Source: an uncultured Myxococcales bacterium (lineage in GTDB: Bacteria > Myxococcota > UBA4151). Taken from it: a stretch of 44,922 nt of DNA. Both the position numbers and the translations under genes were made by a program. The notes beneath the pieces were generated by a model. It was not told the origin of the DNA, ran no database searches, and saw only the letters and a list, made by a program, of their open reading frames with translations. Positions within the stretch are counted from its first letter, which is position 1; each line of letters begins with the position of its first letter. The stretch is from contig CAXGWI010000013.1 in the NCBI GenBank assembly GCA_964013405.1, positions 1 through 44,922 of the forward strand, read 5' to 3'. This document shows positions 14,237 to 36,246 of this stretch, one piece after another.

Positions 14237-14261
14237 CGTGACTTTCTCCAGGGCAAGAACA

Positions 14262-14842: not shown

Positions 14843-15858
14843 ATGATGTTATCTTGATCGGCTCGGCCCTACCGAGCTTCTTCCTCGCCCACATGATCTA
14901 CAAAGCTGATCGATACAAAGAGCCGATCGGGAAGTTCATATTTGCCTTCGTGATCGGCGTGCTGTCGCCCATCGTGACCCTGTTCTTTTCCGGCATGTTC
15001 GCAGGGATCTTTCCCGTAGAATCCAACGCCTGGACTCTTGCGCTGTTGGGCGCTGGCGTGCCCGAGGAATTGGGTCGCTTCTTGATTTTGTTGCTGCTTT
15101 GCAAGGTCTGGAAGGATGTGAATGAGCCTTTTGACTGCGTGGTGTATGCTGCGGCGATTTGGGCTGGATTCGCCGCGGTCGAAAATGTGCTCTATGCGGT
15201 CAATTTTGGGGCCCAGGGTGAGTCGCCTCTCTTCATCATCGCCATGCGTGCTGCCCTCTGTTCCACCGGGCATACGGCCTGGGGTGTCATCGTGGGTGCC
15301 TATGTGGGCATGGCGATGTTTGGTAAAGGCAACAAGATCGCATGGGCTCTCAAGGGCCTCGGCATCGCGATCATCCTTCATACGGTCTACGATGGTCTGC
15401 TCTTTTCTGTGAAAGATGGCGGCGCTGCCATGAACGGGCTGTGGGCCGTTGTTGTCGATGGGGTCACCCTCGTGATGGCCGTCCTGATCGTACTCCGGAT
15501 GAGCAGGATTCAGAGCTTCAGCGACGGCGAAGGTCAGAACTTAATGATGCAGGTCCGACTGATGCGACGATTCCGTCCCGATCGGGGAGATGGGGTCAAT
15601 CAACTGGCGAAGGGGCTTGGGGTGCTGGGTGTGATCCAGATTCTCTTGGTGCTCTTTTTCGCGGCAACGACCTACTTCGCTGCCCTCTTGTTGGCCTCTG
15701 GGGTGTATTTGGCCGTGATCGGTGGCGCCATCACTGGGGCTTTGGGTTACAAAACCTGGGGGGCGCTGTGGCGGCGCATCGAATTGACGGAAGCCGCTGA
15801 CGCCCCGGTGCTCGCAGCCGAGGCAGGGACTCAACCGGAAGATGAAGCCTCCGCTTAG
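14839..15858 (+). CDS. prsW: PrsW-family intramembrane metalloprotease with C-terminal extension
   Basis: Multi-TM protein with DRYKEP, PEELGR, GFAAVEN, GH and LHTVYD motifs. ATGA overlap with the upstream gene. Confidence 0.82.
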   Translation: MNDVILIGSALPSFFLAHMIYKADRYKEPIGKFIFAFVIGVLSPIVTLFFSGMFAGIFPVESNAWTLALLGAGVPEELGRFLILLLLCKVWKDVNEPFDCVVYAAAIWAGFAAVENVLYAVNFGAQGESPLFIIAMRAALCSTGHTAWGVIVGAYVGMAMFGKGNKIAWALKGLGIAIILHTVYDGLLFSVKDGGAAMNGLWAVVVDGVTLVMAVLIVLRMSRIQSFSDGEGQNLMMQVRLMRRFRPDRGDGVNQLAKGLGVLGVIQILLVLFFAATTYFAALLLASGVYLAVIGGAITGALGYKTWGALWRRIELTEAADAPVLAAEAGTQPEDEASA

Positions 15859-18029
15859 TTTGGCAATTCGATCCCCACGATGGTGGACTGGTTGCCGTTG
15901 TTGGTGCCCCAGCAGTAGATCCAGCCGATGCCTTGCTCATTGCACGCAAGGCCAGCGGGACCGGCTGCACCCTGGCAGTTGCCGAGATCGTGCTGACTCA
16001 ACTGGGCCCCTTGAGCGTTGAGTCGATAGAGGCGAATGGCCGGATCGTTTTGGTTGTGTCGATAGGCCAAGGCCCAGATGTTCTGGCCGTCGTAACAGAG
16101 GTCCGCAATGCCTTCTCCGATTCCCGTATCTACGGTGCTGCGTATGTCATTGGGGCTACCGGCTGGGGTAAACCGAAGCTGCCGTAGCGATCGCCAGTCG
16201 TAGCTTGTGGAGTGGTTGGCCCGGACCAGTTGGTCGCCCACGAAGGTCAATGGGTAGCCCCCGTAGGCCACCTGTTCGTTGCCGTGGTTGGACTTGGCCC
16301 CCCCACGGGTCAGTCGGTGCATGTCCTGACCGCCGCCGTTACCCGTGTAATCGGCGATGATGAAGTGGTCCTCGGCACAGGCGACCGAGGTCATATGTTG
16401 GAGATTGGCCTGAAGCGATCCGGTTTGTTGGCCGGTGGCCGGGTCGATGAAATAGAGGGGGTGGTTCCCTTGGATGGCGAGAACCAAGCGCTGTTGAGCA
16501 CCATCCCAACACATGCCTTGGGGATGAAAGTTCCAGCCAGAATAGGCTGGGACATTCACCGTGCCGGTGACGCCGGGGCCTTCCGCGTTGCAGTCCCCGT
16601 CACAGCCATCATCGGCCGCCAAATTCCCATCGTCGCACTCCTCTTCGCCCTCATGAACAAAGCCATCACCACACGCGGCCTCGACACAACCGCTTAAACA
16701 GGCATCTTCATTTTGATCGTTGCCATCGTCACAGGCTTCGAAGCCTTCTTCTCCCACCTCTAAGTCTTGGCGCTGGATCCCATCACCACAGCGAGCCTCC
16801 TCACAATTGGCGAGGCAGTCGTCGGCATCGTTCTCGTTACCGTCATCGCAGATCTCGAAGTTCGGATCGCCGACCTCCAGGTCGGCCCGCAAGAAACCAT
16901 CGCCACAGCGGGCCAGTTCACAGCCGCTCGGGCAGCGGTCGTCATCGTTGGCGTTCCCATCATCACAGGCTTCGTAGCCCGGCGCAGCCGGCTCGAGGTC
17001 TTGCCGGATAATGCCATCACCACAGCGGGCTTCTTCGCAGCCGTTCGTGCAGTGATCGATATTGCTTCGATTGCCATCGTCGCATTGTTCACCTTCTTGG
17101 ACCACACCATCGCCACAACTGGCTCGGGCTTGGCTTTGGCAACCGTTGCTGCACAGATCATCATCCACTCGGTTGCCGTCGTCGCAGTCTTCCACGCCAA
17201 TGTGTAAAATCGCATCACCGCATTCGGCGACCCGACAGGAACCGGTACATGCGTCGCTATCGACGAGATTACCATCGTCGCAGGCTTCCTGGTCGTTCCA
17301 GAGGATCCCGTCCCCGCAGCGGGCTGCCGCGCAGGTGTTGAGACAGGCATCTTCGTTCACCGTGTTGCCATCGTCGCAAAACTCTTCGCTTTGGACGATC
17401 CCATCGCCACAGGTGCTGGGTTGGCAGTTGGCACAGGTGTCGGTGGGGTCCTCATTGCCGTCATCGCAGCCCTCACCCGGCCCCAGGATCCCGTCACCGC
17501 AGCGATGGAGTTGGCAGTTGCTTAGGCAGTCATCTTGATCCTCGTCGTTACCGTCGTCACAGGCCTCAAAACCGGCTGCATCAGGTGCAAGATCGCTGCG
17601 CACAACCCCATCGCCACAGCGGGCCAGTCGACAATCGCGCCGACAAGCATCGGTGTCGGTTTCATTGCCGTCGTCACAGGCCTCAAAGCCGAGGTCACCT
17701 TCTGCAAGGGCCGCGGCCACGACGCCGTCACCGCAGCGAGCCAGTTCGCAGTTGGTGCGGCAGAGATCGTTGTCCACGGTATTGCCGTCATCGCAGGCTT
17801 CGTAGCCCGGGTCGCCGGGAGCACCGTCAGTACGTTGAATCCCATCGCCACAACGGGCCAGTTCACAGGCGTTGGTACAGGGGTCTGTGTTGTCTTCATT
17901 ACCATCATCGCAGAACTCACCGGCTTCGAGTTCCCCATTGCCACAACTGGCTTCGGTCTCTCGGACCACCACCTGTTCACCGGGACAGGCGAGGATGAAG
18001 GCGAGTAGGAAAAGGGGCCATCTGGACAT
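15855..18029 (-). CDS. DUF4215-type Cys-rich repeat lipoprotein with C-terminal beta-propeller-like domain
   Basis: Lipobox FILAC and 13 CDDGN units with CGDG. C-terminal ~240 aa carry blade-like motifs (PQGMCWDG, ADLCYDG, PAGLAC). Confidence 0.85.
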   Translation of the reverse strand: MSRWPLFLLAFILACPGEQVVVRETEASCGNGELEAGEFCDDGNEDNTDPCTNACELARCGDGIQRTDGAPGDPGYEACDDGNTVDNDLCRTNCELARCGDGVVAAALAEGDLGFEACDDGNETDTDACRRDCRLARCGDGVVRSDLAPDAAGFEACDDGNDEDQDDCLSNCQLHRCGDGILGPGEGCDDGNEDPTDTCANCQPSTCGDGIVQSEEFCDDGNTVNEDACLNTCAAARCGDGILWNDQEACDDGNLVDSDACTGSCRVAECGDAILHIGVEDCDDGNRVDDDLCSNGCQSQARASCGDGVVQEGEQCDDGNRSNIDHCTNGCEEARCGDGIIRQDLEPAAPGYEACDDGNANDDDRCPSGCELARCGDGFLRADLEVGDPNFEICDDGNENDADDCLANCEEARCGDGIQRQDLEVGEEGFEACDDGNDQNEDACLSGCVEAACGDGFVHEGEEECDDGNLAADDGCDGDCNAEGPGVTGTVNVPAYSGWNFHPQGMCWDGAQQRLVLAIQGNHPLYFIDPATGQQTGSLQANLQHMTSVACAEDHFIIADYTGNGGGQDMHRLTRGGAKSNHGNEQVAYGGYPLTFVGDQLVRANHSTSYDWRSLRQLRFTPAGSPNDIRSTVDTGIGEGIADLCYDGQNIWALAYRHNQNDPAIRLYRLNAQGAQLSQHDLGNCQGAAGPAGLACNEQGIGWIYCWGTNNGNQSTIVGIELPN

Positions 18030-18082
18030 GGTGAACTCCTGCCCTCAGTGTAGATCGAGAGGACAGTCGCTGTCACGGGCCG

Positions 18083-19252
18083 GTGAATCTGCTAGAAAGC
18101 CAGCGCCAAGGAGTTCCATTGCGCCCCCTTCTCGCCCTTGTGTTGATGTTACTGACTGCTTGTGGGCCCGGTGAGCCCTACAGCGTGCTCAAAGCCCAAG
18201 GCGTGAATCGCTATGTGGGCATGGCACAGATTAAGGAAGAGGTGGTCCAGGGCATCGACCGGACGGTGACCTTCGAACGGGCCACGGGGCCCGCCTGCTT
18301 GCGGGGCGCTGACTATCGGGTCTCGACCCGGGAGACGGGCGCAGATGAGCTCATGATTTTCCTCGCCGGTGGGGGGGCCTGCTGGAAGGATCGATGCACC
18401 GCCATCGAAGAAGCAAACAGTGGCATCTACCCGATGGGCGTCTTGCACAATGGGAGCGAGACCAACCCTTTTGCCGCCTGGAACCTCCTCTACCTTCCCT
18501 ATTGTGATGGGAGTCTGTTTGCGGGGGATGTGGACATCGATGATGATGGCGATGGACGCACGGATCGTTACCATCGAGGTTTGCGGAACCTCACCGCAGC
18601 CCTCGATGTGGGCAAAGCCACCTTCCCTACACCGACGAAGATTCTTCTCGCCGGCAGCAGCGGCGGTGGCTTTGGGACGGTGATCGCTGCCATCGCGGTC
18701 CGCATCACCTGGCCTGAGGTCCCGCTCGTCATCATGAATGATTCGGGCATCGGCGTGGCAAAAGAAGACGACAAAGGATTCATCCGGCGCTTGCTTGAAG
18801 AATGGAACGCCATGAGCCTGGTGCCCAGCGGCCGAGAGGACCTTTTGGCGAACGGGCATCTGAGCGAGTTTATCAAATGGCAGCTGGATGAAGACCCGCA
18901 ACTGCGGGTGGGGGCTTTTAGCTTTGCTGAAGATTCGGTGGTCTCGGAGGTGTTTTTGGAGATCGACCCGCAGCAGTTCTGCGAGGTGGCGAGTCGGGAA
19001 ACCGCTGCCATAAACCGAGCATTTCCAGACCGATATCGCTATTTTATCGCCCCTGGCGATGCCCACACAGTCCTCTATTCCGAGACAGGGATCGGCGTGA
19101 CGGGAAGTATTTTTGGCGAGGAGAGCGCCGCCGCGAGGGGCGTGAACCTGGGGGGCTACGACAGTACCGTGGTGCAAGGTCAAAGCATCAGCCAATGGAT
19201 GCGCGCGCTGGTGGCAGGCAGTGATGCTTGGGTGAACAGGCCGGTGCGATGA
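18083..19252 (+). CDS. Pectinacetylesterase-family hydrolase lipoprotein
   Basis: Lipobox LLTAC, with FLAGGGAC, LPYCDGS, nucleophile motif LAGSSGGG, NDSG and a late His (DAHT). Start uncertain. Confidence 0.8.
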   Translation: MNLLESQRQGVPLRPLLALVLMLLTACGPGEPYSVLKAQGVNRYVGMAQIKEEVVQGIDRTVTFERATGPACLRGADYRVSTRETGADELMIFLAGGGACWKDRCTAIEEANSGIYPMGVLHNGSETNPFAAWNLLYLPYCDGSLFAGDVDIDDDGDGRTDRYHRGLRNLTAALDVGKATFPTPTKILLAGSSGGGFGTVIAAIAVRITWPEVPLVIMNDSGIGVAKEDDKGFIRRLLEEWNAMSLVPSGREDLLANGHLSEFIKWQLDEDPQLRVGAFSFAEDSVVSEVFLEIDPQQFCEVASRETAAINRAFPDRYRYFIAPGDAHTVLYSETGIGVTGSIFGEESAAARGVNLGGYDSTVVQGQSISQWMRALVAGSDAWVNRPVR

Positions 19253-19698
19253 AGATTTGGATCGACGGTGATGCGGCACCGAAGCTGATGAAGGACGTGG
19301 TCTATCGCTGTTCTGATCGTTTGCGTTTGCCGGTGACGGTGGTGGCCAACAGTTGGCAGCAGACCCCTCGGGGAGACCGAATCAAAATGATCGTGGTGGG
19401 GGACGCCTTTGATGCAGCCGATGATTACATCGCCGAGCAGTGTGCCCCGGGCGACTTGGTTGTGACCGCGGACATCCCCTTGGCTGCTCGCATCGTGGCC
19501 TCAGGGGGCGCGGTGATCACGCCGCGAGGCGAGGAACTCGATTCGGAATCGATCGACGAGCGTCTTGCCATGCGAAACTTTATGGAAGAGATGCGGAGCG
19601 CGGATCTGGTCAGTGGGGGACCACCACCCTACGGTGATCGGGACCGCCAACAGTTTGCCAACACCCTTGACCGGGTCGTGACCCGCCTGCGCCGCTAG
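19249..19698 (+). CDS. yaiI: YaiI/YqxD (DUF188) family protein
   Basis: MKIWIDGDAAP, VVAN, DAADDYI, GDLVVTADIPLA, PRGE, GGPPPY and FANTLD. ATGA overlap with the upstream gene. Confidence 0.9.
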   Translation: MKIWIDGDAAPKLMKDVVYRCSDRLRLPVTVVANSWQQTPRGDRIKMIVVGDAFDAADDYIAEQCAPGDLVVTADIPLAARIVASGGAVITPRGEELDSESIDERLAMRNFMEEMRSADLVSGGPPPYGDRDRQQFANTLDRVVTRLRR

Positions 19699-19711
19699 CC
19701 TGGAGTTTATC

Positions 19712-20812
19712 ATGCGTTCTTTTTCTGTCCTCGTGCTGATCTGTGCGGCGGGATGTTTGCCCGATGACGCTTCGTCCTCCTCAAGCGGAGGGGTGCGCGG
19801 TGCAAGCGGCGGCCAGGATGCCGGGCCGACCTCAGGGGCATCGGATGCGGGTTCGAGCTCCCGGGTGGATGCTGGCGGGGGCGCTCAGGGGCCGGATGCG
19901 GGGGGGACGCAACCCAGCTCACCTCTGGTCGATAGCGACTGTCTTGATGGGCAGTATCGGGAGACGATGGTGGACCCTGACGCTGAGATCGCCGATCTTG
20001 TGGGGAACTTTTCCAGTCCAGATTTTATGATCTACATTGAGGAGGTCCTCAATCGCCGCTATCCTCTGGGTTGGCACATCATCGACCGCGGGCTTCGGGA
20101 GGGGGCCGCGATTGGTCACTGCATCGATTTCTTTATGCGGGATCGAAGCTCTGCGGAACGAGTGAACTCCCAGTTGTCCACGGCCGTGCATGAATGCGGT
20201 CACTTTTTGAATATGAGTCTCAACGATGACGCCTTCGTCATTCGCCGGGACCTCCAGATCACCTGTCAGGATGGGGACAGTACGGATCGCTTTGGGCGCA
20301 CTTTCGCTCGTAGCCGGATCAATGATGATGACTACAGCCGACTGAGGCCCCCATGCCAAGGCAATCGCAGTCCGGATTGTGATTCATACGCAGACATTTA
20401 TCTCGATGGGGACCCTGATAACGACGACTTTGAGGGCGGTGACCAGGGCTTCAACATGCTGGCGGAGGAGGCGGTTCAATACATCAACAGTCTCGCCACG
20501 AGCTACGCCATCTACGATCAAAGCCGTTACAGTACCTCGGCCCGCGATGGGATCCTCACCCATCTTTGGTGGATCCAGCGCTACTTAGCCCATGCTCGGG
20601 ACCGCTACCCAGCAGCGCACCAGTTCATTTTGGGCAACGATTGTTATCGGCGCCTGATCCTCACCATTTGGGGTCGGGCTTGGCTTTATCTCGAAGCCAC
20701 TGAGGAGATCAGCCAGTTAACGATCAATGGGGGAGAGATCGAAACCTTGGTCCTAGACCCCAACCTGCTCGCTGAAATCGAAGCGGTGCGAGAAGCCCAT
20801 GGCTGTCGCTAG
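19712..20812 (+). CDS. Hypothetical lipoprotein with HExxH zinc-binding motif
   Basis: GGAG RBS, lipobox CAAGC, Ser/Gly linker with DAG repeats, VHECGH and a downstream EEAVQY. Confidence 0.7.
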   Translation: MRSFSVLVLICAAGCLPDDASSSSSGGVRGASGGQDAGPTSGASDAGSSSRVDAGGGAQGPDAGGTQPSSPLVDSDCLDGQYRETMVDPDAEIADLVGNFSSPDFMIYIEEVLNRRYPLGWHIIDRGLREGAAIGHCIDFFMRDRSSAERVNSQLSTAVHECGHFLNMSLNDDAFVIRRDLQITCQDGDSTDRFGRTFARSRINDDDYSRLRPPCQGNRSPDCDSYADIYLDGDPDNDDFEGGDQGFNMLAEEAVQYINSLATSYAIYDQSRYSTSARDGILTHLWWIQRYLAHARDRYPAAHQFILGNDCYRRLILTIWGRAWLYLEATEEISQLTINGGEIETLVLDPNLLAEIEAVREAHGCR

Positions 20813-20821
20813 CCAGCCCAT

Positions 20822-22831
20822 TCAGCCGTTGCAGTCGAAGTAGAGGTCAAAGCCACGCAAAATCGGAGTGATTTGGGGGTCATCGCTGCTGAGCTCCGCC
20901 TCGATCATCGCCGTACTCAGGGTGGGGAGTTCGAAGAGCATGGCCGGCAGGTCGCTATGCTCCGAGCTCACCTCGTAGGGGCCATGGGCGACCGCTTGGG
21001 CCAATTCTCCTTCGCTCGCTGCCACCCGAATACGGAACCGGATGCGGGTGCCGGGTGGTGTTGTGGTGACCGCATCAAAGCTCTGCCAGGAGGTTTGCCG
21101 CTTGGAACAGCCTTGGACCACGGTCCGGTAACTGCCCCTCGGCAAGGTGAAGTTGCGAAGGGCAAAGCCCGTGAAGTCGCTGTAGGTATAGGGGGATTGA
21201 CCCACCCGGACTCGAACCATGGCGCCACCATTGTCCGGATCCACGCGGCTTGCCAGATCACCACCACCGCTCACGCCCCAAATTCGGCCGGTGAAGTCGA
21301 CCCCAACACCTACGGTGGCCGATCCACCCACCGAGTGATTGCTCAGGAAATCCATCGAGTCCGCATCCCAGGCCGCCACGGAGCCGCCTTCGTTGGTCGC
21401 CGCCCAGATGCGGCCTTGGTTGTCGGCCGCCACGCCACGAATCATCCACTGGACGGGGACGCTACGCCAATGCCCACCCCCCTGGAGCGGGTCGGCCACG
21501 GCCTGACCCTGATCATCAAAGTTGGGGTCATAGCTGGTGAGGCGTCGACCAAAGAAGCCGCCAAGCCAAAGTCTACCGCGGGCATCTGCGGCGATGCCGT
21601 AGGAGCCGCCCCAGGGACTTTGAATCATCTGTCCGGCTCGCCCGGTGGCTGAGTCTACACCGACCAATGTGCTCGGCGGCATCACACCGGCGCCGAGGCT
21701 CGTGGACCAGACCACCCCCTGGGCGTCGATGACGGCGCCGTAGGGCTGGTGGGCGATATCGACGGGATTGGTGAGCCCGGGCCGACGAACCAGTTCACCG
21801 CTTTCGCCCTGCAGGTTGTAAAATCGCCGCTCGTTAAACAGACCGACCCAGAGGTTGCCATTGGGGTTTTGGGCATCGCCACCGTCGATGGCGAGGGCCC
21901 GAGGGACACCGGCCTGTCCACCCACGGGGAGCGTCCAAAGGATGCACTCGTCTTCCATCCCCAGATACTCGGTGGGGTCGTTGACGTCGATGCTGCCATT
22001 GCCGTTGCGGTCGGCGCTGGTATCGATTCGGCCATTGCCGTTGCGGTCGTTGCATTGGGTGTCGGCGTACTTGGTGACCGAGCCCTGTCCTTCGAAATTG
22101 CGATTCGCCACAAAGGCGTTGCCGGCGAGATCGATGGCCGTGCGCGATGGGCTTTGATCTGCGTGGGGCGTGAGCCCAGCCCTGTTGGGGCCAACGGAGG
22201 GATAGCGGGCCACTTCTTGTAGGAGGTCCGTATCCACTTTGGAGACGGTGCCTTCGCCTGCATTGGCGATCCAGAGGCTGTTGGTGGCGACCTGTTCACC
22301 CGCCTCTCCAGGAATCAGGACGATGTTGCCATCGTCGTCTCGCTCCAGGCCCGAGTTGGCTGCCGGCTCTTCAAAGGCTTGGCCGTGGGCTGGGCCCCGG
22401 GCAACGGGCTCGCCAGGCTGGCTCTGGGACGAGCAGCCCTGGGGAAAGCCTTCGTCAATATCGCCATCGCAGTCGTCATCGGTTTGGTTGCAGGTCTCTT
22501 GGGACTCCGGCAGCCGCTGGCCCGTGCATGGGCCCCAGCGTCCGTCGACGCATTCGCGCACACCGCGCAGACAGATGCCGATGCCCGCGGTAGCTTCTGG
22601 GCCTTCATAGCAACGGGCCCGGGTATCGGCATCGCAAGGACAGCCTTCGCGGAGTTCGCCCTCGTCGCAGCCACTAGGATCTGGACGCTGTGAACCATCG
22701 CCTGGATCGCCGCCCTGGTCGCCGATTTGCCCGCATTGCCCGCCTGGGCAGGTGGGACCATGAGATGCCGGGTGATGGGGCTCGGAACAGGCTGTCGCGG
22801 CGAGGGCGATGAGCACAAAGAGACGGGGCAT
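20822..22831 (-). CDS. Lipoprotein with Cys-rich metal-binding-type motif and beta-propeller domain
   Basis: Lipobox AATAC, motif ETCNQTDDDCDGDIDEG, and blades LWIAN..EGTVSKVDT, PSRTAID, PRALAID, PYGAVID, YGIAAD, RGVAAD and PYTYSDFTG. Confidence 0.75.
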   Translation of the reverse strand: MPRLFVLIALAATACSEPHHPASHGPTCPGGQCGQIGDQGGDPGDGSQRPDPSGCDEGELREGCPCDADTRARCYEGPEATAGIGICLRGVRECVDGRWGPCTGQRLPESQETCNQTDDDCDGDIDEGFPQGCSSQSQPGEPVARGPAHGQAFEEPAANSGLERDDDGNIVLIPGEAGEQVATNSLWIANAGEGTVSKVDTDLLQEVARYPSVGPNRAGLTPHADQSPSRTAIDLAGNAFVANRNFEGQGSVTKYADTQCNDRNGNGRIDTSADRNGNGSIDVNDPTEYLGMEDECILWTLPVGGQAGVPRALAIDGGDAQNPNGNLWVGLFNERRFYNLQGESGELVRRPGLTNPVDIAHQPYGAVIDAQGVVWSTSLGAGVMPPSTLVGVDSATGRAGQMIQSPWGGSYGIAADARGRLWLGGFFGRRLTSYDPNFDDQGQAVADPLQGGGHWRSVPVQWMIRGVAADNQGRIWAATNEGGSVAAWDADSMDFLSNHSVGGSATVGVGVDFTGRIWGVSGGGDLASRVDPDNGGAMVRVRVGQSPYTYSDFTGFALRNFTLPRGSYRTVVQGCSKRQTSWQSFDAVTTTPPGTRIRFRIRVAASEGELAQAVAHGPYEVSSEHSDLPAMLFELPTLSTAMIEAELSSDDPQITPILRGFDLYFDCNG

Positions 22832-22972
22832 GATTGGACTCCCAGCAAGCGGTTTCGCGCGCTGGACTATCCGAAAATTGAGCGTTCGCCGCTATCGGAC
22901 GATCCTCGGGGGGTTTACAAGCTGGGTCAAGCCGCGCCTAGATAGGGGCGGAACTTATGGGGAATCCCACCG

Positions 22973-25855
22973 ATGCCAAGCCGGCCTTTGCTATTGAGCT
23001 TTGTGCTCATTGCCACATCAGGCTGTGGTCAGGCCTTGCCCGACTTGATTCTGGATCGCAGCGGCAGCGTGTGTGGTGACGGGGTCACCCAGTCGGGTGA
23101 AGCCTGTGATGACGGCAACGATAACGACTTTGATGCCTGTCTCTCCACCTGTCGAGAAGCCAGTTGTCACGATGGGTTTCGGCGCAGTGACATTATGCCA
23201 GGGATGGCTGGCTATGAGGCCTGTGACGATGGGAACACGGATGATGACGATGGCTGTGTCCTCGACTGCATACAAGCTCGCTGTGGCGATGGCCTGATTC
23301 GACGAGATCTCGATTTGCAGGTTCCCGGTTTTGAGGCCTGTGACGATGGTGATGACAGCGACCCTAATGACGGCTGTCACGGTTGCAAGGCCCCGGGCTG
23401 TGGCGATGGCGTCGTTCAGGCCAATGAGGAATGTGATGACGGAAATGGGGTCGACAACGACGCCTGTATTGAATGTCTCAACGCTCGCTGTGGTGATGGT
23501 GTCCGGCGGGTCGGTGAAGGCGGGGAGGCCTGCGATGATGGAAATGTGGACAATTCCGACGATTGCACAACGGATTGTGAGCCGCCTCGCTGCGGCGACG
23601 GCTACCGGCAGGATGGTGAAGCTTGTGATGACGGTAATGGAAGAGACGCCGACGCTTGCACCAACGCTTGCGAGGAAGCGACCTGTGGCGATGGGATCGT
23701 GCGTCGGGACCTTGCAGAGGGGCTCCCTGATGCCGAGGGCTGCGACGATGCCGATGAGGACAACCATGACGCCTGTACAAATGACTGCTTGCGAGCTCGT
23801 TGCGGTGACAACATCGTCCAGCGTCATTTTGAGGCCTGCGATGACGGCAATGAAAGTCCCGATGATTCTTGCGTGAACTGTGTCCAGCCGACCTGCGGCG
23901 ATGGAGTGGTTGACGCCGATGAGGAGTGCGATGACGGCAACGAAGACAACCGAGACGCCTGTACGGACCTCTGTCTCCACGCTCGCTGCGGTGATGGATT
24001 TCAACGCCAAGACCTCGCCCAGGATGAAGCGGGTGGGGAGTTCTGCGATGATGGCAACGAACTGGAGCAGGACGCGTGCCTAAACAACTGCGAACTCAGC
24101 CGCTGTGGTGATGGTGTCCAGCGTTTAGATCGGTTGCGGGGGGAGCCGGGCTTCGAAGCCTGCGACGATGGGAACGAGGTCCCTGATGATGGTTGCACAG
24201 ATGCCTGCCGCAGTGGCTGCGGCGACGGTCTCCTGGCCGAGGGGGAAGCCTGTGACGATGGCAACGACGAAGACGCCGATGCCTGCACCAATGGCTGCAC
24301 CGAGGCCAGGTGTGGTGATGGTGTCCAGCGGCAGGATCTCGACCCAGAGGCCGCCGGCTATGAGTTCTGCGATGATGGCAACGAGTCCAGTGAAGATGGC
24401 TGTACAGACATCTGCCGAATCGCTCGCTGTGGCGATGGGGTCGTCCGGCGTGACTTGCAACCGGATCAAGACGGTTTTGAAGCCTGCGATGACGGGAATG
24501 AGGACAACACAGATGAATGCACGGTGATGTGTCAGCCGCCCCGTTGTGGTGATGGCATCCTCCACGAGGGTGAAGCCTGTGATGATGGGAATGCAGTGGC
24601 CGGCGATGGCTGTCTTCTCGACTGCGAAGCCGCCGTCTGTGGCGACGGGGTTCGCCGGCTCGATCGGGTCGATGGCGAACCCGGCTACGAGGCCTGTGAC
24701 GATGGCAATATCGAATCGGGCGACGGGTGTCGCGGCGATTGCAGCAAGGTCGAGGTGATCAGCATCTGGGCCGGTGCTCAAAACTCCTGCGCAACTTTTG
24801 GTAATGGTCGTGCACGGTGTTGGGGGCGTAATTCTCAGCACAGAGAAGTTGAGCGAATCGCTGATGAAGAGGATGTGGTCTGGGCCGCGTGTATTAGTCA
24901 GAGGCTCGGTGTTTTTGGCGACCAGCCGGTCTACACCACCCTTCACCGAAATGGCCGTGTTAAGTGTGTCGCTCCCGCAGGGACTCGCTACCGCCCTTAT
25001 GCCTGTGGTCATGCGGACCCTTGGCTGATGGTGGCTCCCGACCAACCTCTAGAGGGTGTTGTGCAGGTCGACCTTGATAGAGATTTGGGTTGTGCACTCA
25101 CCGGCGAGGGGCAGGTCTATTGTTGGGGGGAAAGAGATAATGTCGGAACCGATGGGTTTCTCGCTGACCGAGTTGTTCCGATCGAGTCGCAATTCGAATT
25201 TGCCGAGATAGCGGTCGCTCCATCTCTGGCCTGTGGTCGAGCACGAGAATCAGGCCAGGTCTATTGTTGGGGCGATTATGTTAACCACCATTATGATCAG
25301 CCGACACTGATTGCTGGCACCGCGAATACAAACAGCTTAGCGATGGGAGAAGGCTTTGGGCTTGCAATGACGGAGGGGGGGATACTTGCTTGGGGTAGCG
25401 CTGGTTGTGGTCATTTTCCCTATTTCACTGGCCAGCACTCTTGCTGGGGCGGGCGGCTAAGGTTTTCTCAACATTCTCAGCTCATTGATTGGCCTGCCGA
25501 TGAGGACCGATGGATTCAGATGGCCGGCTCGGGTTTTTCCTCAAAACCGGTGGACCAGACGATTGCCTTTAGTTGTGGTGTGACCGCCAATCACCAGATG
25601 ACATGTGTCGGACGTACGCCATGGCGCCCCTTGTTACCAGGCGACCGCAACTTCGATGAATTAGCGCAAGATGCGAGGCAGCCTTCGCTCGCCCCGCTTC
25701 CCGATGGCGAGGAGGTCGTGGAAGTGAGGCTTGGTTATAGTCATGGCTGTGCCCGCACTCGGATCGGCCGTGTGTATTGTTTTGGTGGCAACGAGCATGG
25801 GCAGGCAGGTTTAGGAACTGAATACCTTAACCAACCAACCCTGATTATTCCCTAG
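22973..25855 (+). CDS. DUF4215-type Cys-rich repeat lipoprotein with C-terminal RCC1-like repeat domain
   Basis: Lipobox ATSGC and 16 CDD units. C-terminal RCC1/BLIP-II-like motifs [23 protein letters not shown] and [19 protein letters not shown]. Confidence 0.85.
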
Positions 25856-25884
25856 CCGTGCTGCTTTTGGCACAATGCTTGGAG

Positions 25885-26511: not shown

Positions 26512-26657
26512 CGGGGTTATCTCCATCCACCTCTCGGCTACTGTCACTCTTGATCGGCAGGAGCGATGGGAAGTTGATAGGACGTCTGACCGATAGGCCT
26601 CGGTCGCCGAAAATGTCGGGCCGAAATCTGCAGTGAACTGGGGCAGGAAAGCGGCGG

Positions 26658-27584: not shown

Positions 27585-27608
27585 GAGTTGATCCGCTCGG
27601 TCGGCCGC

Positions 27609-28373: not shown

Positions 28374-28380
28374 GCTGACC

Positions 28381-29016: not shown

Positions 29017-29070
29017 GGCATGTTCCTCCGAGCCGGGGGGTACGAGCCTAATCGAAAGTCCAGAGTGGGA

Positions 29071-29604
29071 CTAGCCCCTGAAGACGAGGCCTTTGCGAGC
29101 GTCATCGGAGTAGAGGTTGAGGGTCCAGCCCTCTTCCAGGCATTCCACCGAATGGATGAAATGATCGTAGCGCTCGCCTTCGCCCACGTGGAACAGGTGG
29201 TCGCCAGCTTCCATCACCGTCTCGCCCGTGGCTTCGACCCCGTCGTCGGTCAATCGATACATCACCATGCGGTACTTTCCCGAGAGCGCTGCGTACATGA
29301 CCACGGGAGGGTGCCCGTGGACGGGGGTGATGCAGCCGATACGCCAGTGGGCGAGGACGCCCTCAAATCCTGGCTCTGTCGGGGTATGAAGGGCCCCCAC
29401 AACGGTGCGCCGGTAGCAGGCGACGACAGGACATTGAAGTTCGTTGGGTAGGGTGTCGAGATCGATAGCATCCATCCGCTTACGGATGGCCGCAAAGCGC
29501 TTGGACCAAGCCATGTCTTGTTGGTCCAAAACGGCGCAGAAGTCCGCCCATGGCTGGGCCAAAATCTGACGATCATGGAAGGTGTCTGAGCGTCCAACGA
29601 CCAT
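29071..29604 (-). CDS. Cysteine dioxygenase-like cupin
   Basis: YRRTVV, TPVHGH, FIHSV and TLNLYS parallel the thiol-dioxygenase motifs YxR, HxH, H and SLHLY. Confidence 0.6.
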   Translation of the reverse strand: MVVGRSDTFHDRQILAQPWADFCAVLDQQDMAWSKRFAAIRKRMDAIDLDTLPNELQCPVVACYRRTVVGALHTPTEPGFEGVLAHWRIGCITPVHGHPPVVMYAALSGKYRMVMYRLTDDGVEATGETVMEAGDHLFHVGEGERYDHFIHSVECLEEGWTLNLYSDDARKGLVFRG

Positions 29605-29717
29605 GGTGACTTCCCCGTAGGGACAGAGTCATTCATGGCCTCTGCCGGGTCAAGGGCCCGCATCCAAGTGAGGCAAATCAATGCGGAAGCTGAAGAGGCC
29701 AGACTGGGAAGTGGCGC

Positions 29718-30668
29718 CTAAAATCGCTCTGTATGTGCGTGGCAGTAGGGGGCTTTACCGGTCTTGATGTAGTAATCTTGATGGTATTCTTCGGCGGGCC
29801 AGAAAATCCCTGCCGGCTGAACCTGGCTCACGACCGCATAGCCCTTCTTTTGCAGCAATTCGACCAGTTCGAAGACGATCTGTTCTTCTTCCTCATCCCC
29901 CACAAAGACAGCGGAGCGATATTGGCTGCCGACATCGGGCCCCTGCCGATCTTTCTGTGTCGGATCATGAATCTCAAAAAAGGTCTTCGCCAGGGTCCGG
30001 TAGGTCACCTTGGTCGGGTCGTAGACCACCCGGACGGTCTCCGCATGCCCCGTACTGCCACTGACCACCTCCCGGTAGCTGGGGTTGCGTTTGGTGCCTC
30101 CCATGTAACCTGATTCGGCTCGCAGCACGCCCGGAACCTTCTCAAGGAGGTGCTCCACCCCCCAAAAGCACCCGCCCGCAAAGAAGGCTTCCTTGTAGGG
30201 GACGTCACTGAAGTCTAGCGCCACGGAATTAACGCAATGCCTCGTATCTTTATCGTTCATTTGCTCGCCGCGAAAGACATGGCCCAAATGCCCGCCGCAG
30301 CGGGCACAGCGAATCTCTGTTCGCCGGCCGTCGGCATCGGGCACCTCCCGAACCGCACCTTTGATCGCCGAATCAAAGCTCGGCCAGCCCGTCCCGGAGT
30401 TGAACTTCGCCTTCGAAGAAAAGAGGGGCGCACCACAGCGGTTGCAGGTGTAGTTGCCTTTGCCTTTATGTTTCAGCAGGGCGCCGGTGAAGGCTCGCTC
30501 CGTGCCGCCCTTCTCGATGACGTCTTTCGCTTTGCCGGTGAGCTGCTTCCAGCCGCTTCGGGCTTTCGGGTCCGTCGACTGCTGGGCCGTGGTTGGTTGG
30601 GCCAGAGCCCAATGGGCCGTGGCAAAGCCAACGAGCAGAGCGAGCGTGACTTTAATCTGTCGAGACAT
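29718..30668 (-). CDS. msrBA: Exported bifunctional methionine sulfoxide reductase, MsrB-MsrA fusion
   Basis: Signal peptide. MsrB motifs GTERAF, CNRC, GWPSF, CARCGGHLGHVF and RHCVNS. MsrA motifs AGGCFWG, GHAETV, QYRS and AEEYHQDY. Confidence 0.93.
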   Translation of the reverse strand: MSRQIKVTLALLVGFATAHWALAQPTTAQQSTDPKARSGWKQLTGKAKDVIEKGGTERAFTGALLKHKGKGNYTCNRCGAPLFSSKAKFNSGTGWPSFDSAIKGAVREVPDADGRRTEIRCARCGGHLGHVFRGEQMNDKDTRHCVNSVALDFSDVPYKEAFFAGGCFWGVEHLLEKVPGVLRAESGYMGGTKRNPSYREVVSGSTGHAETVRVVYDPTKVTYRTLAKTFFEIHDPTQKDRQGPDVGSQYRSAVFVGDEEEEQIVFELVELLQKKGYAVVSQVQPAGIFWPAEEYHQDYYIKTGKAPYCHAHTERF

Positions 30669-30712
30669 GAGCCCCCTCGCTCAGAACATCCGGTCGCAGT
30701 GCTTCTTCCCAG

Positions 30713-33100
30713 CTAGCGGCAAGCGCAGATGCGAGCGCCGGAATAGTTGCCGTTGTTATAACCTGAACTGCCGCAGTCGGCGCTTGCGTTCACTTCCGCC
30801 CGGGATTCGGTCACGTTACAACCCGTTACTTCCGCGTTAAAGCCGTTGAATACCCATGTGTTCGACCAGCACCCAAGGCCGAAATAGGACCGATCCCAGT
30901 TGTTGCTGTGGAGGGTGAAGTGCCCAGCGTCCGTGGGGCCCACATTGCCGTCCTGTCTTCGAAAGCTCAGGCCCAAATGCTCCCGAACCAGCCGGTGGTA
31001 GTTCGTCTGGTTCGCTGAACCGTAACTGACAAGGCCATCGAGATCGCCCTCATGGCAACTCCGCCCCCGGGCCGCACATGCGCTTGTACAGGACTCAGAA
31101 TTGCTTCTGGCAAGGGTGACGAGATAGGAGTTCCCGTCGATCGTGACCCGTTTGAGGTGGTCGCCTAGGGCCTCGGAGCAATCACCTTCGCAGTCCGGGC
31201 CGCCGTCACAGGCTTCCACCCCTGCCTGGACATGGCCATCGCCACAAATGGCGTCGGCGCAATCGATACAGGCATCGGTGTTGATCTCATTCTCATCATC
31301 GCAAGCTTCACCGGCCTGGACGATGCCATCACCACAACGGGGCGTGGTGCAGGCGTTGCTGCAATCATTGTCGTTGATCTCATCGCCGTCATCGCAGCCT
31401 TCTCCCGCTTGTTCGATGCCATCACCGCACCGCGGCGTGGTGCAGGCGTTGCTGCAATCGTTGTCGTTGATCTCATCCCCATCATCACAAGCCTCGACGC
31501 CATCCTGGATCTGGCCGTCACCACAGCGGGCAGCGGCGCAATTGTTGAGACAGGCATCGATTTGGACTTCGTTGCCATCATCACAGGCTTCACCTGCTTG
31601 TTGGAAACCGTCGCCGCATCGGGCTTCGGCACAGGCGTTGGTGCAGGTATCCTCGTTGATTTCATTACCGTCATCACAGGCCTCAAAGTTGATCTGACCT
31701 TGGGCCACGTCGGCCCGCAGGATGCCGTCGCCACAACGGGCTTGAAGACAGTTGTTCGTACACGCGTCATTGGCCACGTCGTTGGCATCGTCGCAGGCTT
31801 CGTAGCCAGCAGCGCCAGGCTCTAGATCCCGGCGCAAAATGCCGTCGCCGCAACGAGCCTGTTCACAGGCGTTGCTACAAGCATCTACATTGGAGCGATT
31901 GCCATCATCGCAGGCTTCGTCTTCGTGAACGATACCGTCCCCACAAGTCGCCAGGGGCCGGATCTGACAGTCTGAGGTGCAGCCGTCGTCTTCAATCGCA
32001 TTGCCATCGTCACAGGCTTCGTAACCATCGGCACCTTCGGCAAGGTCCGCTCGTAGGAGGCCATCGCCACATCGGGCATGTTCGCAGGCATTCGTGCAGG
32101 CGTCCTGGGCCACCACGTTGCCATCATCGCAGGCTTCTTCGATCCCGAGGAGGTGGCCATCGCCGCAGCGGGCGACCCGGCAATCGTTGAGACAGTGGTC
32201 CGTTTGCTCGTCGTTGCCGTCATCACACTGCTCGTAGCCGGGATCTTCCGCTTGCAGGTCGCTGCGGTGAATGCCGTCGCCACAGCGGGCGGGGAGACAC
32301 TGGGTTGTACAGGCATCCTGAGGGACGGCGTTGCCATCGTCGCAGCTTTCTTGGTCGGCCCAGAGGATCCCATCGCCACAGCGGGCAGCGGCACAGCTGT
32401 TAAGACAGGCATCGGTTTCGACCTCATTGCCATCATCGCAGAACTCGCCGTCTTGAACATAACCATCACCGCAGGTGCTGGGGGTGCAATTGGCACAGGC
32501 ATCGGTGGGGTCCTCGTTGCCGTCATCACAACCCTCCCCAGGACCAAGGACGCCGTCACCGCAACGGGCTTCTTCACAGTTGCTACGACATGCGTCGTCG
32601 TCGGAGGCGTTGCCATCATCGCAAGCCTCGTAGCCGGCTTCATTTGGCTCGAGGTCGGTCCTAAGGACCCCATCACCGCAACGCGCAGGCTCGCAGTCGG
32701 TTTTGCAGGCGTCAGACTCCACCGTGTTGCCATCATCGCAGGCTTCAAAGCCGAGTCCGCCTTCACTGACGTCGGCCCGGACGACCCCGTCGCCACAGAC
32801 GGCCACTTGGCAGGTGTTCAGGCAGGCATCACCATCCAAATCATTGCCATCGTCACAGGTCTCATGGCCGACTTCCCCGATGGATAGATCCGTTCGGGTC
32901 ACCCCGTCACCACAGCGAGCGAGATCGCAGCCATTGGTGCATTCATCGGAGTTGACCTCGTTGCCATCATCACAGGCTTCGCCCAATTCAAGCTCGCCAT
33001 TACCACAGGAGCCCTGTTGTTGTTGGACGACCACCTGTTCCGAACAAGCGGCTGCGAGGCTGATGCAGATCAATAGGCTGAGTTTTTTGGGGTTGGTCAT
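30713..33100 (-). CDS. DUF4215-type Cys-rich repeat lipoprotein with unidentified C-terminal domain (795 aa)
   Basis: ATG 33100 with GAGGAG upstream, lipobox AAAC, 17 CDD units plus one degenerate unit, and a ~155-aa tip ending ARICACR. Confidence 0.85.
31321..31500 (-). repeat. 93-nt tandem duplication of one stalk unit
   Basis: Peptide [24 protein letters not shown] occurs twice; DNA copies begin at 31321 and 31414. Confidence 0.85.
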
Positions 33101-33159
33101 CTTCGACTTCTCCTCGGTGGAGCTTAATGGAGCCACCTGCGGGGGACAAGCGCCGCACC

Positions 33160-34203
33160 CTACGTGTGTCTGCGTCGGCGGAGGATGCTCCCCAGAATGA
33201 GAATGCAGAGACCAGGAGCGATGGATGTGGCGCCACAGTGGCACCCCACCGAATCGGCTGCTTTCGGTGGCGGATCCGAGTTGGCTTCGGGCTCGGCTCG
33301 AGTCCGCTTACAGTTCGATTGGGCCAAAGGGGTCGGGCTGGCCTCGCAGGTGAAGTACAAGCGGAGCCCCGAAGCACTGTAGCTCATCGCTTCGCATTGC
33401 CCATCCCCGTAGACTGGAGCCTTCAGAGCGGGGGCGAAATCCGTGACCACCCCATCGGTACGAAGGAGTTCGAGGCGATAGCCGGCGCCATAGGTCCCAA
33501 GAAAGAGTTCGGAACCCGTGGGGTCGATGTCGGCTTGGGTCACCAACAAGGCTTCCGTGCCCCCCTCCAGGGACACACGGGTCACAAGCTCCGCCTCGAA
33601 GGGCTCCTGTGAGCCGTTCCAGGCCGCGGCTGGAATCCGATAGGCAGAAGCGACACGGTCAAATGCCTTCTCGACGATGAAGAGGTCGCCGGTCTTTGGG
33701 TCGACCGCCAGTCCTTCTGCATCCCGGGGGCCCTCTGGATACACCAGGTCCAAGGGCTCGGCTTGTCCCCTTACCGTCTGTCCGGCACCCGGTGCTGGGG
33801 GCTCGGGGACGCGCCAGATCGTGACCTTGCTCCTCGCAGCTGCATTGTCGCCGATATCGCCGATGAAAAGACAGGTTTGATCGCCGCATGGGCCCAGCCC
33901 TAAGGCTTCCCAATCGGTGGCATCGACCCCGTCCAGTTCCAGTCGGCCCATTGCGGTGCCGTCGGAACGAAAAGCATAGACGAAGGGACCGCCCCCTGAA
34001 TCGTTGTGGCTCCAGAGCAGATCTGGAAATTGCCGGGAGCAGGCCAGGCCGCTGGATTCAATCAGTGCTGGGATCTGCAGTCGACTCTTGAGGCTCGCCT
34101 CGTCGAATTCGAGGCATGCCGCGGCGCCCAAAGCGGTCGAAGGCAGCATGCCGCTGACCAGGATTGCGAACAGCAGGCCTCCATTCCCGGTGCTGCCCCC
34201 CAT
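33160..34203 (-). CDS. Exported beta-propeller-like protein with MYXO-CTERM-like sorting tail
   Basis: [34 protein letters not shown] and QCEAM. Ends in a Pro-rich linker followed by GCHCG, a hydrophobic helix and RRRR. TGATG coupling to the upstream gene. Confidence 0.75.
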
Positions 34204-36122
34204 CAACCGCCGCCCTCGGCCCTTCGGTAGAAGACTTCAAGACTCCCCCGTCCGAGCGTGCTGCCATTGATGATCAGGGGCTGATTGATGAACCAGGCCG
34301 TGGAGTAGACGCAGAAATAGGCGTCGCTGGAGTCGTTCGCACCCACACACAACTCGTTGTAGGCCCCCACATCGCAGAAGCCAAACATGCAGCCCCTGGG
34401 GTCCTCCATATTGCGGTTGGCGCAAACCAAGTCGCCAACATCGTCCGGGATGTCCTCGACCGCACCGGCCCCACCCACTCGGTTGAGACCGAGTTGATCG
34501 TCACAGATGCGCCAGTCGTTGGTGATGTCTTCATTAAAGGTGAGTAATTCATCCATTTGGCCCTCTTGGGACTCGGTGACCACCAGGGTATGCACACTGG
34601 CCGGTGAACTTTGATCGGCGCGAAAATGACCGATGTTGACGTCATAGACCCGGAACATCAACTGGACAGCCCCGAGGCCCCGACAGATTTCGGGGAAGTT
34701 GGGGGCCGGCCGTGCAGCGCCGGTGGCGATGAGGCATCGGCTCCACGGGCCACCCCGCTCGTTGGCCAGGTCCATATCGCAGTAACTCTCCACAACCTGA
34801 TCGTGCTGAATGAGGAAATATCGACCGCTGGGGAGTTCGGGATAGCGCTCATTGAGAGTTTGGCAATCGGCCACCGCCTTTGCCACGCTGCTGCCGTCGG
34901 GAAATGCGGTACAGTCGTTTTGACAGGCATCGTCGTCGACCCGATTGCCATCGTCGCAGACCTCGTAGCCTGGCTGGTCCGCTGCGAGGCCTCGACGCAA
35001 GACACCATCACCACAGCGGGCAGCCGTACAGTCATTCAGGCAGGCGTCATCGTTGACACCGTTGCCATCGTCACAGTCTTCGCCCGCGTCGACGCGACCA
35101 TTGCCACAGATCTCGGCGCCGCAAGTCGGTGAACAGCCATCGCCCGGCTCCCCATTGCCATCATCGCATTCCTCGTAACCGGGTTGACCGACGCCCACAT
35201 CGGCCCGCTGGATGCCATCACCACAGCGGGCCAAGCTGCAGTCGAGTCGACAGGCATCGGAATCCACCCCATTGCCATCGTCGCAGGCTTCGCCTTCTTG
35301 GACCGACTGGTCACCACATCGGGGCAGGAGACAGTTGTTTCGGCAACCGTTCCGGTCATCTCGGTCGCCGTCATCACAGGCTTCAAACCCCGACGCTCCT
35401 TCCACTCGGTCCGTGCGCAGAACACCGTCGCCGCAGCGGGCCACCTGGCAGGTGACTCGGCAGGCGTCTTCATCGACCTCGTTGCCATCGTCGCATTCTT
35501 CGAAGCCTGTACGAATCACGCCATCGCCACAGCGACTTGCAGTGCAGTCGTTGCGGCAGCCATCGGAATCCACCGCATTACCGTCATCACAGGCTTCATA
35601 GCCAGCGTCATCGACCCCGAGGTCCTGCCGGACCACCCCGTCGCCACAACGGGCTTCGTCACAGGTGTTCAAACAGCCATCAAAGGGGTTTTGATTGCCA
35701 TCGTCACAGCTTTCGATTTGGCCGTCAGCCCCTCGGCCACCCGGGACCCCATCACCACAGATATTGGCGAGGCAATCCCCTCGGCAGTCATCGTCGTCCC
35801 GCTCATTACCATCGTCGCATTGTTCGAATCCTGGGGCCCCCAACAGGAGGTCGAGCCGGTGGATACCATCACCGCAGCGGGCTCGGACGCAGTTCGATAG
35901 GCAACCGTCTTGGTCATCAGCGTTGCCATCGTCACAGGTTTCGGCCCCCTGTCTTAAACCATCGCCGCAGCGACCATCGCCACCGCCGGCCGAGACCAGC
36001 AGGCTCGGAAGGGGCGCACTGCATCCGCCCCATGGGAGGATGAGAAGAAAGAGCAGGAGCTGAGACCGACCGCAAAGCGCAAACCGGAAGGGGAGCCATC
36101 GATCGGAGTTGGATGCATTCAT
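34203..36122 (-). CDS. DUF4215-type Cys-rich repeat lipoprotein with fibrinogen-like YCDM domain (639 aa)
   Basis: Lipobox-like WGGC, 10 CDD units, and a tip with DC..L..SGRYFL..YCDM..GGPW. Start uncertain. Confidence 0.8.
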   Translation of the reverse strand: MNASNSDRWLPFRFALCGRSQLLLFLLILPWGGCSAPLPSLLVSAGGGDGRCGDGLRQGAETCDDGNADDQDGCLSNCVRARCGDGIHRLDLLLGAPGFEQCDDGNERDDDDCRGDCLANICGDGVPGGRGADGQIESCDDGNQNPFDGCLNTCDEARCGDGVVRQDLGVDDAGYEACDDGNAVDSDGCRNDCTASRCGDGVIRTGFEECDDGNEVDEDACRVTCQVARCGDGVLRTDRVEGASGFEACDDGDRDDRNGCRNNCLLPRCGDQSVQEGEACDDGNGVDSDACRLDCSLARCGDGIQRADVGVGQPGYEECDDGNGEPGDGCSPTCGAEICGNGRVDAGEDCDDGNGVNDDACLNDCTAARCGDGVLRRGLAADQPGYEVCDDGNRVDDDACQNDCTAFPDGSSVAKAVADCQTLNERYPELPSGRYFLIQHDQVVESYCDMDLANERGGPWSRCLIATGAARPAPNFPEICRGLGAVQLMFRVYDVNIGHFRADQSSPASVHTLVVTESQEGQMDELLTFNEDITNDWRICDDQLGLNRVGGAGAVEDIPDDVGDLVCANRNMEDPRGCMFGFCDVGAYNELCVGANDSSDAYFCVYSTAWFINQPLIINGSTLGRGSLEVFYRRAEGGG

Positions 36123-36246
36123 GATGACCTTCTTAAGTGAAAACGCGCGCCCGCTCAAAACCCCCGAACCGCCCCCAGAAAGCACCACGGTGCTGGATCA
36201 TCCGCCGACTGCCTTGTACGGGGAGGGTAGAGAGGCGAGGAAAGCC

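Follow-up and report, generated by a model that had tools for sequence, protein, structure and literature searches.

A genome-wide family of probable repeat-stalk lipoproteins with diverse C-terminal tips in an uncultured marine member of the Myxococcota

A family of small-genome Myxococcota has expanded a set of likely lipid-anchored, likely surface-exposed adhesin-like proteins, in which a repeat stalk, predicted to be stiffened, would hold a binding tip. Between species this repertoire probably changes as whole genes are gained and lost and, more rarely, as tips are swapped. The analysis started from a stretch of 44,922 nt of an uncultured Myxococcales bacterium (GTDB lineage UBA4151; assembly GCA_964013405.1, contig CAXGWI010000013.1), hereafter the window, in which four genes for such proteins lie within 20 kb. 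An earlier note on this DNA had proposed these four genes as a modular system. Our analysis revealed that they are 4 of 119 members of a genome-wide family and not a dedicated locus, and that they lie so close together because stalk genes have expanded throughout the genome.

The stalk genes of the window

Each of the four proteins begins with a signal peptide and a lipobox-like Cys. Gene 1 (15855..18029, minus strand; Cys codon 17987) carries an EQVVVRE head, 13 repeats (16590-17945) and a tip of 244 aa (15858-16589), while gene 2 (22973..25855, plus strand; Cys codon 23024) combines 16 repeats (23072-24742) with an RCC1-like tip (24743-25852). Gene 3 (30713..33100, minus strand; Cys codon 33046) has an EQVVV head, 18 repeats (31178-33007) and a Cys-containing tip of 154 aa (30716-31177); its open reading frame (ORF) spans 30713-33244, the likelier start being the ATG at 33100 behind GAGGAG. 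Gene 4 (34203..36122, minus strand; Cys codon 36023), with 10 repeats (34911-35969) and a fibrinogen-like YCDM tip (34206-34910), lies in an ORF of 34203-36188, for which the ATG at 36122 is the likelier start. The genes sit on both strands, interspersed with unrelated genes.

The repeat takes the form CG(D/N)G-loop-E-x-CDDGN-x4-D-x-C-x3-C, and all four proteins score above the cut-offs of Pfam DUF4215 (PF13948; 146-203 bits vs 27, E 4.5e-43 to 6.7e-61) and of TIGR02232 in NCBIfam (156-273 bits vs 20.8). The earlier note had assigned the repeats to this DUF4215/Myxococcus Cys-rich type, an assignment that holds, as do the common plan of lipobox, Cys/Asp stalk and C-terminal domain, found in place in all four ORFs, and its repeat counts of 13, 16, 17-18 and 10. 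Its view that the tips are mutually unrelated is equally well founded, given that the stalks are 46-60% identical to one another (E <= 6e-66) while the best tip-tip alignment reaches only E 0.03. Between units inside the window genes DNA identity averages 55-62%, with a maximum of 76%.

Genome-wide expansion and distribution in the phylum

The window genome (G000) is a metagenome assembly of 3.9 Mb in 244 contigs, 94% complete and with roughly 3,135 genes. ORFs with at least three repeat units were catalogued, yielding 119 stalk genes that occupy 264,921 nt from stop to stop, or 6.8% of the assembly. A strict lipobox rule was passed by 76 of the 103 5'-complete stalk ORFs, compared to 159 of 1,232 control ORFs. 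The 84 complete genes contain 3-35 units (median 10), and 20 of the 119 are cut at the 3' end. An EQVVVRE head directly after the lipidated Cys is common to 30 genes, and the 22 complete ones among them bear 14 tip classes, counting the fibrinogen-like classes as one.

From these 119 genes, 0.62 stalk genes are expected per 20.3 kb and, by hand arithmetic, about 0.7 four-gene windows of 20 kb are expected by chance. Stalk genes occur on 82 contigs; four within 20.4 kb are seen on the window contig alone, and three on six contigs. A dedicated four-gene locus was rejected, since the genome-wide number explains the density. Recent duplication of whole genes was also rejected: paralogous tips are 24-57% identical, the best pair thus reaching only 57%. 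In the congeneric genome G001, 13 stalk genes stand head to tail in 56 kb of contig C33 (5652-61823; L019-L022), most of them ending in fibrinogen-like tips that differ from gene to gene; the counterpart of this array in G000 is split across several contigs.

A DNA pattern coding for CDDGN was counted in 151 genomes of the phylum, with the reversed pattern as control (0-2 per genome). The motif is present in 133 of them. The counts for the family genomes G000-G004 were 1,183, 876, 907, 1,074 and 663 in 3.0-3.9 Mb (221-316 per Mb), whereas the other 146 genomes reached at most 418 copies (in 11 Mb) and a density of 48 per Mb, so that motif density in the family is roughly 5- to 7-fold that of the nearest other genome in the sample. 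Judged by this motif, the stalk-gene expansion is specific to this small-genome family. Contigs 92-97% alike to the window occur in a second marine metagenome study. Short contigs of RNA run X12 on genes 2 and 3 were discarded as a sign of transcription, the sample being common with a DNA run. Run X1 may be where the window itself came from and does not count as independent. For the sequencing runs the comparison covered contigs (shares 0.06-0.21).

Structure of the stalk

Four Cys were found in 1,070 of 1,096 stalk units, which are 30-32 or 39 residues long and contain 18% Asp and 9% Glu. When the head was modelled together with five units from 60 aligned sequences, the result was confident (predicted local distance difference test, pLDDT, 89; predicted template modelling score 0.68) and consists of turns, with no helices or long strands. 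Its fold matches, the ADAM disintegrin shoulder and PAPP-A, were weak (Z 2.3-2.7). Passages of PMC4885070 describe the ADAM shoulder as binding Ca2+ via the N, E, E and D side chains of XCGN(X)3EXGEXCD. At these positions D/N is present in 100%, E in 99% and D in 98% of 1,281 stalk units, meaning that three of the four ligands are kept, and it is reasonable to deduce that each unit would contain two disulfides and one or more Ca2+. The stiffening of the stalk by disulfides or calcium, which the earlier note had suggested, is thus consistent with the confident model and with the calcium motif, that is, at the level of prediction and motif. A prediction of a three-copy complex of the head and first five units scored 0.00, unlike its calibration, and is no evidence either way.

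As regards the repeat elsewhere, part of bioRxiv 2023.03.06.531300 places a DUF4215 protein among diatom adhesive trail proteins, and sections of PMC4736985 and PMC8667818 report the TIGR02232-type repeat weakly in large Peribacteria proteins and also in human COLQ. The repeat is not named in the passages seen of two PAPP-A papers. A functional study of DUF4215/TIGR02232, or a paper on the present expansion, was not found in the literature searched, subscription papers and most supplements lying outside the search.

Diversity of the tips

Clustering and motif rules placed the 93 complete tips (at least 80 aa) of G000 into 39 classes, the commonest being RCC1-like (26), fibrinogen-like (17) and Gly-rich (5), and the rest being small or single. 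Pfam families were assigned to 31 of 59 tips of the G000 family that were scanned, including C-type lectin, LamG, FGE, ALK/LTK Gly-rich, PPC, LTD, matrixin and DUF1554, and the other 28 had none. Domains of binding type distal to the anchor occur both in the family at large (C-type lectin, LamG, fibrinogen-like) and in the window (RCC1-like and, weakly, fibrinogen-like). Two adjoining stalk genes, at L024:618-1727 and as orthologues on C43 of G000, end in a domain like the N-terminal part of AgmC, which scores 108 bits against the gliding protein model NF047640 (cut-off 275).

The labels that the earlier note gave to the window tips fared unevenly. The RCC1-like tip of gene 2 matches PF13540. 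The fibrinogen-like label of gene 4 is weakly supported: the tip scores 20.9 bits against the YCDxxxxGGGW model NF040941, below the cut-off of 30, but it clusters with paralogous fibrinogen-like tips, and one tested paralogue passes the model with 62.4 bits. A sequence search with the gene 4 tip and stalk against solved structures gave nothing relevant. By contrast, the beta-propeller label of gene 1 found no Pfam match; the best PDB profile match is nidogen at a non-significant E of 0.27, and it is this match, together with the appearance of the sequence, that suggests a propeller. A search with this tip returned two matches among 1,563 candidates, namely its own cluster and P0025 (39% identical), a distant relative in which the same tip stands on another head.

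For the gene 3 tip no Pfam or NCBIfam family was detected, and 23 homologues were found among 1.84 billion representatives. In most of the 18 inspected, it is a C-terminal module on unrelated stalk types; a few carriers look eukaryotic, one of them with kinase-like domains. The tip was modelled with a pLDDT of 84-96 over residues 141-210, the stalk part of that first model being of low confidence. It aligned to the C-terminal domain of MGAT5 with Z 6.7 (root-mean-square deviation 2.6 A over 85 residues), compared to Z 2.3 for Mincle, and its third Atlas match (0.89) was a cluster in which 12% of the members carry the MGAT5 family PF15024. Foldseek returned no match at E <= 0.001 for the model containing this tip or for the stalk model. 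A fold like that of the MGAT5 C-terminal domain is possible on these models, and the middling Z speaks to fold and not to function. The tip was not found in G001-G005, whose assemblies are 59-93% complete, and its end is not present in the 140 nt of G001 that adjoin msrAB.

Gene turnover and tip exchange between relatives

The comparison covered 3-17% of each relative, with 626 kb from G001, 270 kb from G002, 297 kb from G003 and 117 kb from G005. G000 and G001 are congeneric, as are G002 and G003. Orthologues were defined by reciprocal-best N-terminal regions with at least 66% identity and at least 6 points above the next, and flanks were checked, giving 30 scoreable pairs in total.

Presence or absence of a gene was the commoner change. 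Of 25 G000 genes with both flanks mapped, 7 are missing at the G001 site (one being case 2 below), and G001 stalk genes occur at two sites that are empty in G000. Within the window, gene 2 is missing at its syntenic site, where the flank gap is 396 vs 2963 nt, and gene 4 at C27 641-924, which spans window positions 34059-36248. Gene 1 alone has a syntenic counterpart in G001, which shares its tip (82%) and has 16 repeats vs 13. Up to 10 of the 23 G000/G001 pairs have unequal numbers of repeats; motif misses may account for some of these differences. At L058:1246-2022 (G000 C82:6112-6888) lies a headless remnant of two repeats and a fibrinogen-like tip, for which G001 has a full gene of 913 aa; it would represent a deletion through the stalk.

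Regarding the tips themselves, 25 of the 30 pairs have the same tip, four show a switch of tip class and one a diverged tip. G000 and G001 contributed 30 pairs, of which 8 were cut by contig ends and 2 were tipless in both; among the 20 scored, 17 share the tip (69-94%), 2 changed class and 1 has RCC1 tips that are only 32% identical. G002 and G003 contributed 16 pairs, 6 of them cut, with 8 sharing the tip (60-90%) and 2 class changes. All 6 scoreable G005 pairs keep the tip; they involve in part the same genes and stand outside the count of 30.

Two of the four switches break inside the repeats and two at or near the last repeat. In case 1, G000 C161 (fibrinogen-like) and G001 C101 (C-type lectin) are about 80% identical over 700 residues and part inside a repeat. 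No close copy of either tip exists in the other genome, and the two junctions are free of long exact repeats (23 nt) and of near-identical ones, which speaks against misassembly. The upstream link in G000 spans a contig gap, and the downstream flanks differ. In case 2, G001 C33:59988 joins the upstream flank and units 1-5 of G000 C112:7869 (77-94%) to the distal units (77-89%) and tip (94%) of what is apparently the next G000 gene, across a contig gap. The common units of the two G000 tandem neighbours are 95-100% identical, and the arrangement would fit the outcome of a crossover between tandem repeats. In cases 3 and 4 (G002 C139 vs G003 C14; G002 C67 vs G003 C67) the upstream flanks are 76-79% alike over 1.8 kb and the last units are still 75-79% alike, so that the change falls at the border of stalk and tip or close to it. 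The tip of the G003 gene is in each case similar to that of its neighbour (78% and 68%).

Across genera, tips and N-terminal stalks appear to be uncoupled. In 11 cross-genus pairs with tips 57-72% identical, the heads are 58.8% identical vs a background of 58.7%; in 16 within-genus pairs the heads reach 81% vs 60%. A quick head tree groups the heads by genus (7 changes vs 25.6 when shuffled). We relied on the pairwise identities, since 40 of the 73 forks of this tree, built on 120 columns, remained open. In addition, one contig of another marine run is about 92% identical to tip 1 up to position 16580, while its other 495 nt do not match the gene 1 stalk even at 80%. This single contig with tip 1 on another distal stalk is only a hint of tip exchange, and a contig of a further run crosses the gene 1 stalk-tip junction colinearly. 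Many short joints in marine-run contigs, being repeats of other organisms, were not used as evidence.

The proposal in the earlier note of interchangeable tips diversified by recombination within the repeats thus stands in part. The four switches, two of them inside the array, and the cross-genus uncoupling support it, and syntenic orthologues with different tips do exist, but tips are mostly fixed at short range, that of gene 1 included. With 25 of 30 pairs keeping the tip, exchange must be slow.

Function and localization

The proteins are likely lipid-anchored and likely surface-exposed. After export to the outer face of the cell, the repeat stalk, predicted to be a rod that disulfides and calcium stiffen, would keep a binding domain at a distance from the surface, and the most likely job would be gripping many different prey cells or particles through tips of lectin, fibrinogen and RCC1 type. 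Ordinary homologous recombination in the conserved repeats is the likely cause of tip exchange; its partners would be paralogues, in tandem or dispersed, that undergo unequal crossover or gene conversion, or else DNA taken up from outside.

Several points weigh against this interpretation. Most orthologue pairs retain their tip, so that exchange is slow. A lipobox alone is silent on the membrane face. The stalk fold matches are weak, none reaching E <= 0.001. Pure adhesion leaves unexplained why six complete stalk genes lack a tip and why at least one tip (matrixin) is enzymatic. The stretches of the relatives were chosen mostly by head pattern or stalk matches and a few by fibrinogen-like tips; every genome compared is a metagenome assembly in fragments, and a contig end is reached by 35 of the 119 stalk genes. 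Case 2 (G001 C33) could be a tandem duplicate collapsed in assembly, and the cross-genus head identities may be partly saturated or homogenised.

Alternatively, the proteins could form a protective or structural coat, either an acidic calcium-bridged layer or decoys against phages, grazers or rival predators, with enemies driving the turnover of tips. The very acidic units and the tipless genes would suit such a coat, and turnover by presence or absence at 7 of 25 sites fits an arms race, but many tips have known binding folds and are kept at 57-72% across genera, which fits fixed ligands better than escape. We regard a coat as unlikely.

Lipoproteins of Gram-negative bacteria are periplasmic by default, and no dedicated export signal was identified in the stalk proteins. 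Facing the periplasm from the inner membrane or from the inner leaflet of the outer membrane, they might act as scaffolds, sensors or metal sinks, and some tips do resemble envelope modules (AgmC N-terminal-like below cut-off; RCC1-like). Stalks of up to 35 units (median 10) with lectin-type tips make, however, little sense in a thin periplasm, and G000 encodes a type II secretion system as a possible exit, so that we give this location even less credit than the coat. The genome also encodes type IV pili, and its MYXO-CTERM matches, along with GltG-like proteins below cut-off, point to a Myxococcota-like lineage, whereas a scan of genome contigs with MsrAB yielded no taxonomic placement. On contig C51 (L237:9948-15967) an FHA protein, an FHA-fused secretion ATPase and an A24 (prepilin) peptidase stand together, a cluster that is possibly a Tad/Kil-like system by its gene content.

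Kin recognition, with tips binding identical tips on sister cells, would recall TraA of Myxococcus xanthus, for which passages of PMC3325183 propose Cys-rich repeats as a rigid stalk presenting a lectin-like head, and the tip sets do differ between species. TraA, on the other hand, is encoded by a single polymorphic locus and has TIGR04201 repeats, an N-terminal PA14-like head and a MYXO-CTERM anchor, while here 119 genes encode proteins of the opposite orientation, whose repeats are of TIGR02232 type, whose lipid anchor is N-terminal and whose tips are for the most part conserved. Neither TIGR04201, TIGR03901 nor a TraA model is among the NCBIfam matches of the four window proteins, and kin recognition appears very unlikely.

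Search for a fast diversifier

The least credible explanation is that a dedicated mechanism rewrites the stalk genes rapidly within populations, be it by site-specific inversion, by cassette switching or as a diversity-generating retroelement (DGR). In its favour, the genome does contain a real DGR, in whose target an FGE-type tip follows a single repeat-like unit, and the one marine contig with tip 1 on a different distal stalk could be read in this sense. Against it, the template of the DGR matches only its own target, units within the window genes are 55-62% alike in DNA (maximum 76%) and paralogous tips are 24-57% identical. Stalks have 31-mers in common in only 13 of 7,021 gene pairs, and repeated 31-mers occur within only 5 of 119 stalk genes. 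G000 yielded just two tyrosine recombinases, neither of them on a contig with a catalogued stalk gene, and no fast switch was found for the stalk genes, serine recombinases being outside the search.

The DGR lies on contig C5 of G000 (L257:3-2699) and comprises, on the minus strand, a reverse transcriptase (L257 1049-2134), an Avd-like gene (2002-2460) and a template repeat (2604-2699). The variable repeat (910-1005) lies at the end of a 5'-cut ORF (3-995) on the plus strand, the target being opposite in orientation to the cassette. The first nine mismatches between the two repeats all fall at template adenines. The template matches only this target in the genome and none of the 119 stalk genes, and the orthologue of the target in G002 is a lipoprotein of 1,724 aa with a different stalk. 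G002 has a similar cassette (L258:1-1520); there, the candidate target (L286:878-6049) has lost its match to the end of the template. No longer homologues of the DGR target were found in the search, which is weak evidence. A second reverse transcriptase occurs on G000 C131 (L259:4565-5884), with no template repeat found nearby.

Comparison with known systems

Expansion of adhesin-like stalk proteins can be set against several described systems. The proteins share the repeat of other DUF4215/TIGR02232 proteins, passing both cut-offs, and the motif is widespread in the phylum, but here the density is higher, an EQVVVRE head occurs on 30 genes and tip switches are documented. In fibrillar adhesins, as portrayed in parts of PMC8286594, a single chain likewise runs from an anchor through tandem stalk domains to a binding domain at the far end, in variable architectures; unlike those (Monzon et al., 2021), the present proteins, which are putative adhesins, would have an N-terminal lipoprotein anchor. 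The word 'lipoprotein' does not appear in the main text of PMC8286594, and DUF4215 was not found in one supplement each of PMC8286594 and PMC9210967, online domain lists being outside the search.

The MAT fibres of Bdellovibrio bacteriovorus also form a paralogous repertoire, whose members share the N-terminus but differ in their C-terminal tips, some of which have C-type lectin folds, and the authors suggest tip swapping and prey recognition, according to sections of the source (Caulton et al., 2024; PMC10769870). The same sections describe 21 trimeric phage-fibre-like proteins, in contrast to the about 119 lipoproteins with a Cys/Asp repeat stalk, and no phage-fibre or S74 family is among the Pfam matches of the four window proteins. 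In Periscope proteins, repeat number differs between relatives, as it does here between species, although passages of the report (Whelan et al., 2021; PMC8201768) describe highly identical repeats, in contrast to the dissimilar units found here. By the features tested, the stalk proteins are not MAT, Periscope or TraA proteins. Their parts are already on record and their design follows a known principle; what is new is the scale, the restriction to one small-genome family and the tip switches with mapped breakpoints.

Other features of the window

Two large genes at 12-9757 with KR, ACP, ketosynthase, acyltransferase and FabA-like domains constitute a cluster like those of polyunsaturated fatty acid synthases. 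A Cys-rich ORF of 581 aa (12911-14656, minus strand), likely with a later start and a lipobox, has a different repeat type and no Pfam/NCBIfam family. The lipoprotein at 20822-22831 (minus strand) has a weak Cu-binding_MopE motif and a propeller-like region and is conserved in G001. Finally, the product of 33160-34206 (minus strand), found in all five family genomes, has a MYXO-CTERM-like tail and a weak match to a myxosortase-dependent phytase-like model.

Biological meaning

A bolder view, which we offer tentatively and hold to be possible rather than probable, is that this family of bacteria uses roughly 7% of its DNA for a single plug-and-play surface platform with a universal disulfide/calcium stalk. 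The repeats would act as recombination sockets, allowing any repeat-flanked domain, those shared with eukaryotes included, to be displayed. The resulting prey or particle repertoire, five times the MAT set of Bdellovibrio, would still undergo reshuffling inside populations, with support from a retroelement by which a sister lipoprotein is hypermutated.

The DUF4215/TIGR02232 repeat also occurs in human COLQ and PAPP-A, and this lineage, with more than 100 copies per genome, is its strongest natural case. The tips without a Pfam family are candidates for new lectins or binders. The expansion of stalk lipoproteins thus makes it possible to test prey or particle recognition by an uncultured marine bacterium, as well as whether the repeat may be a general calcium- and disulfide-based spacer.

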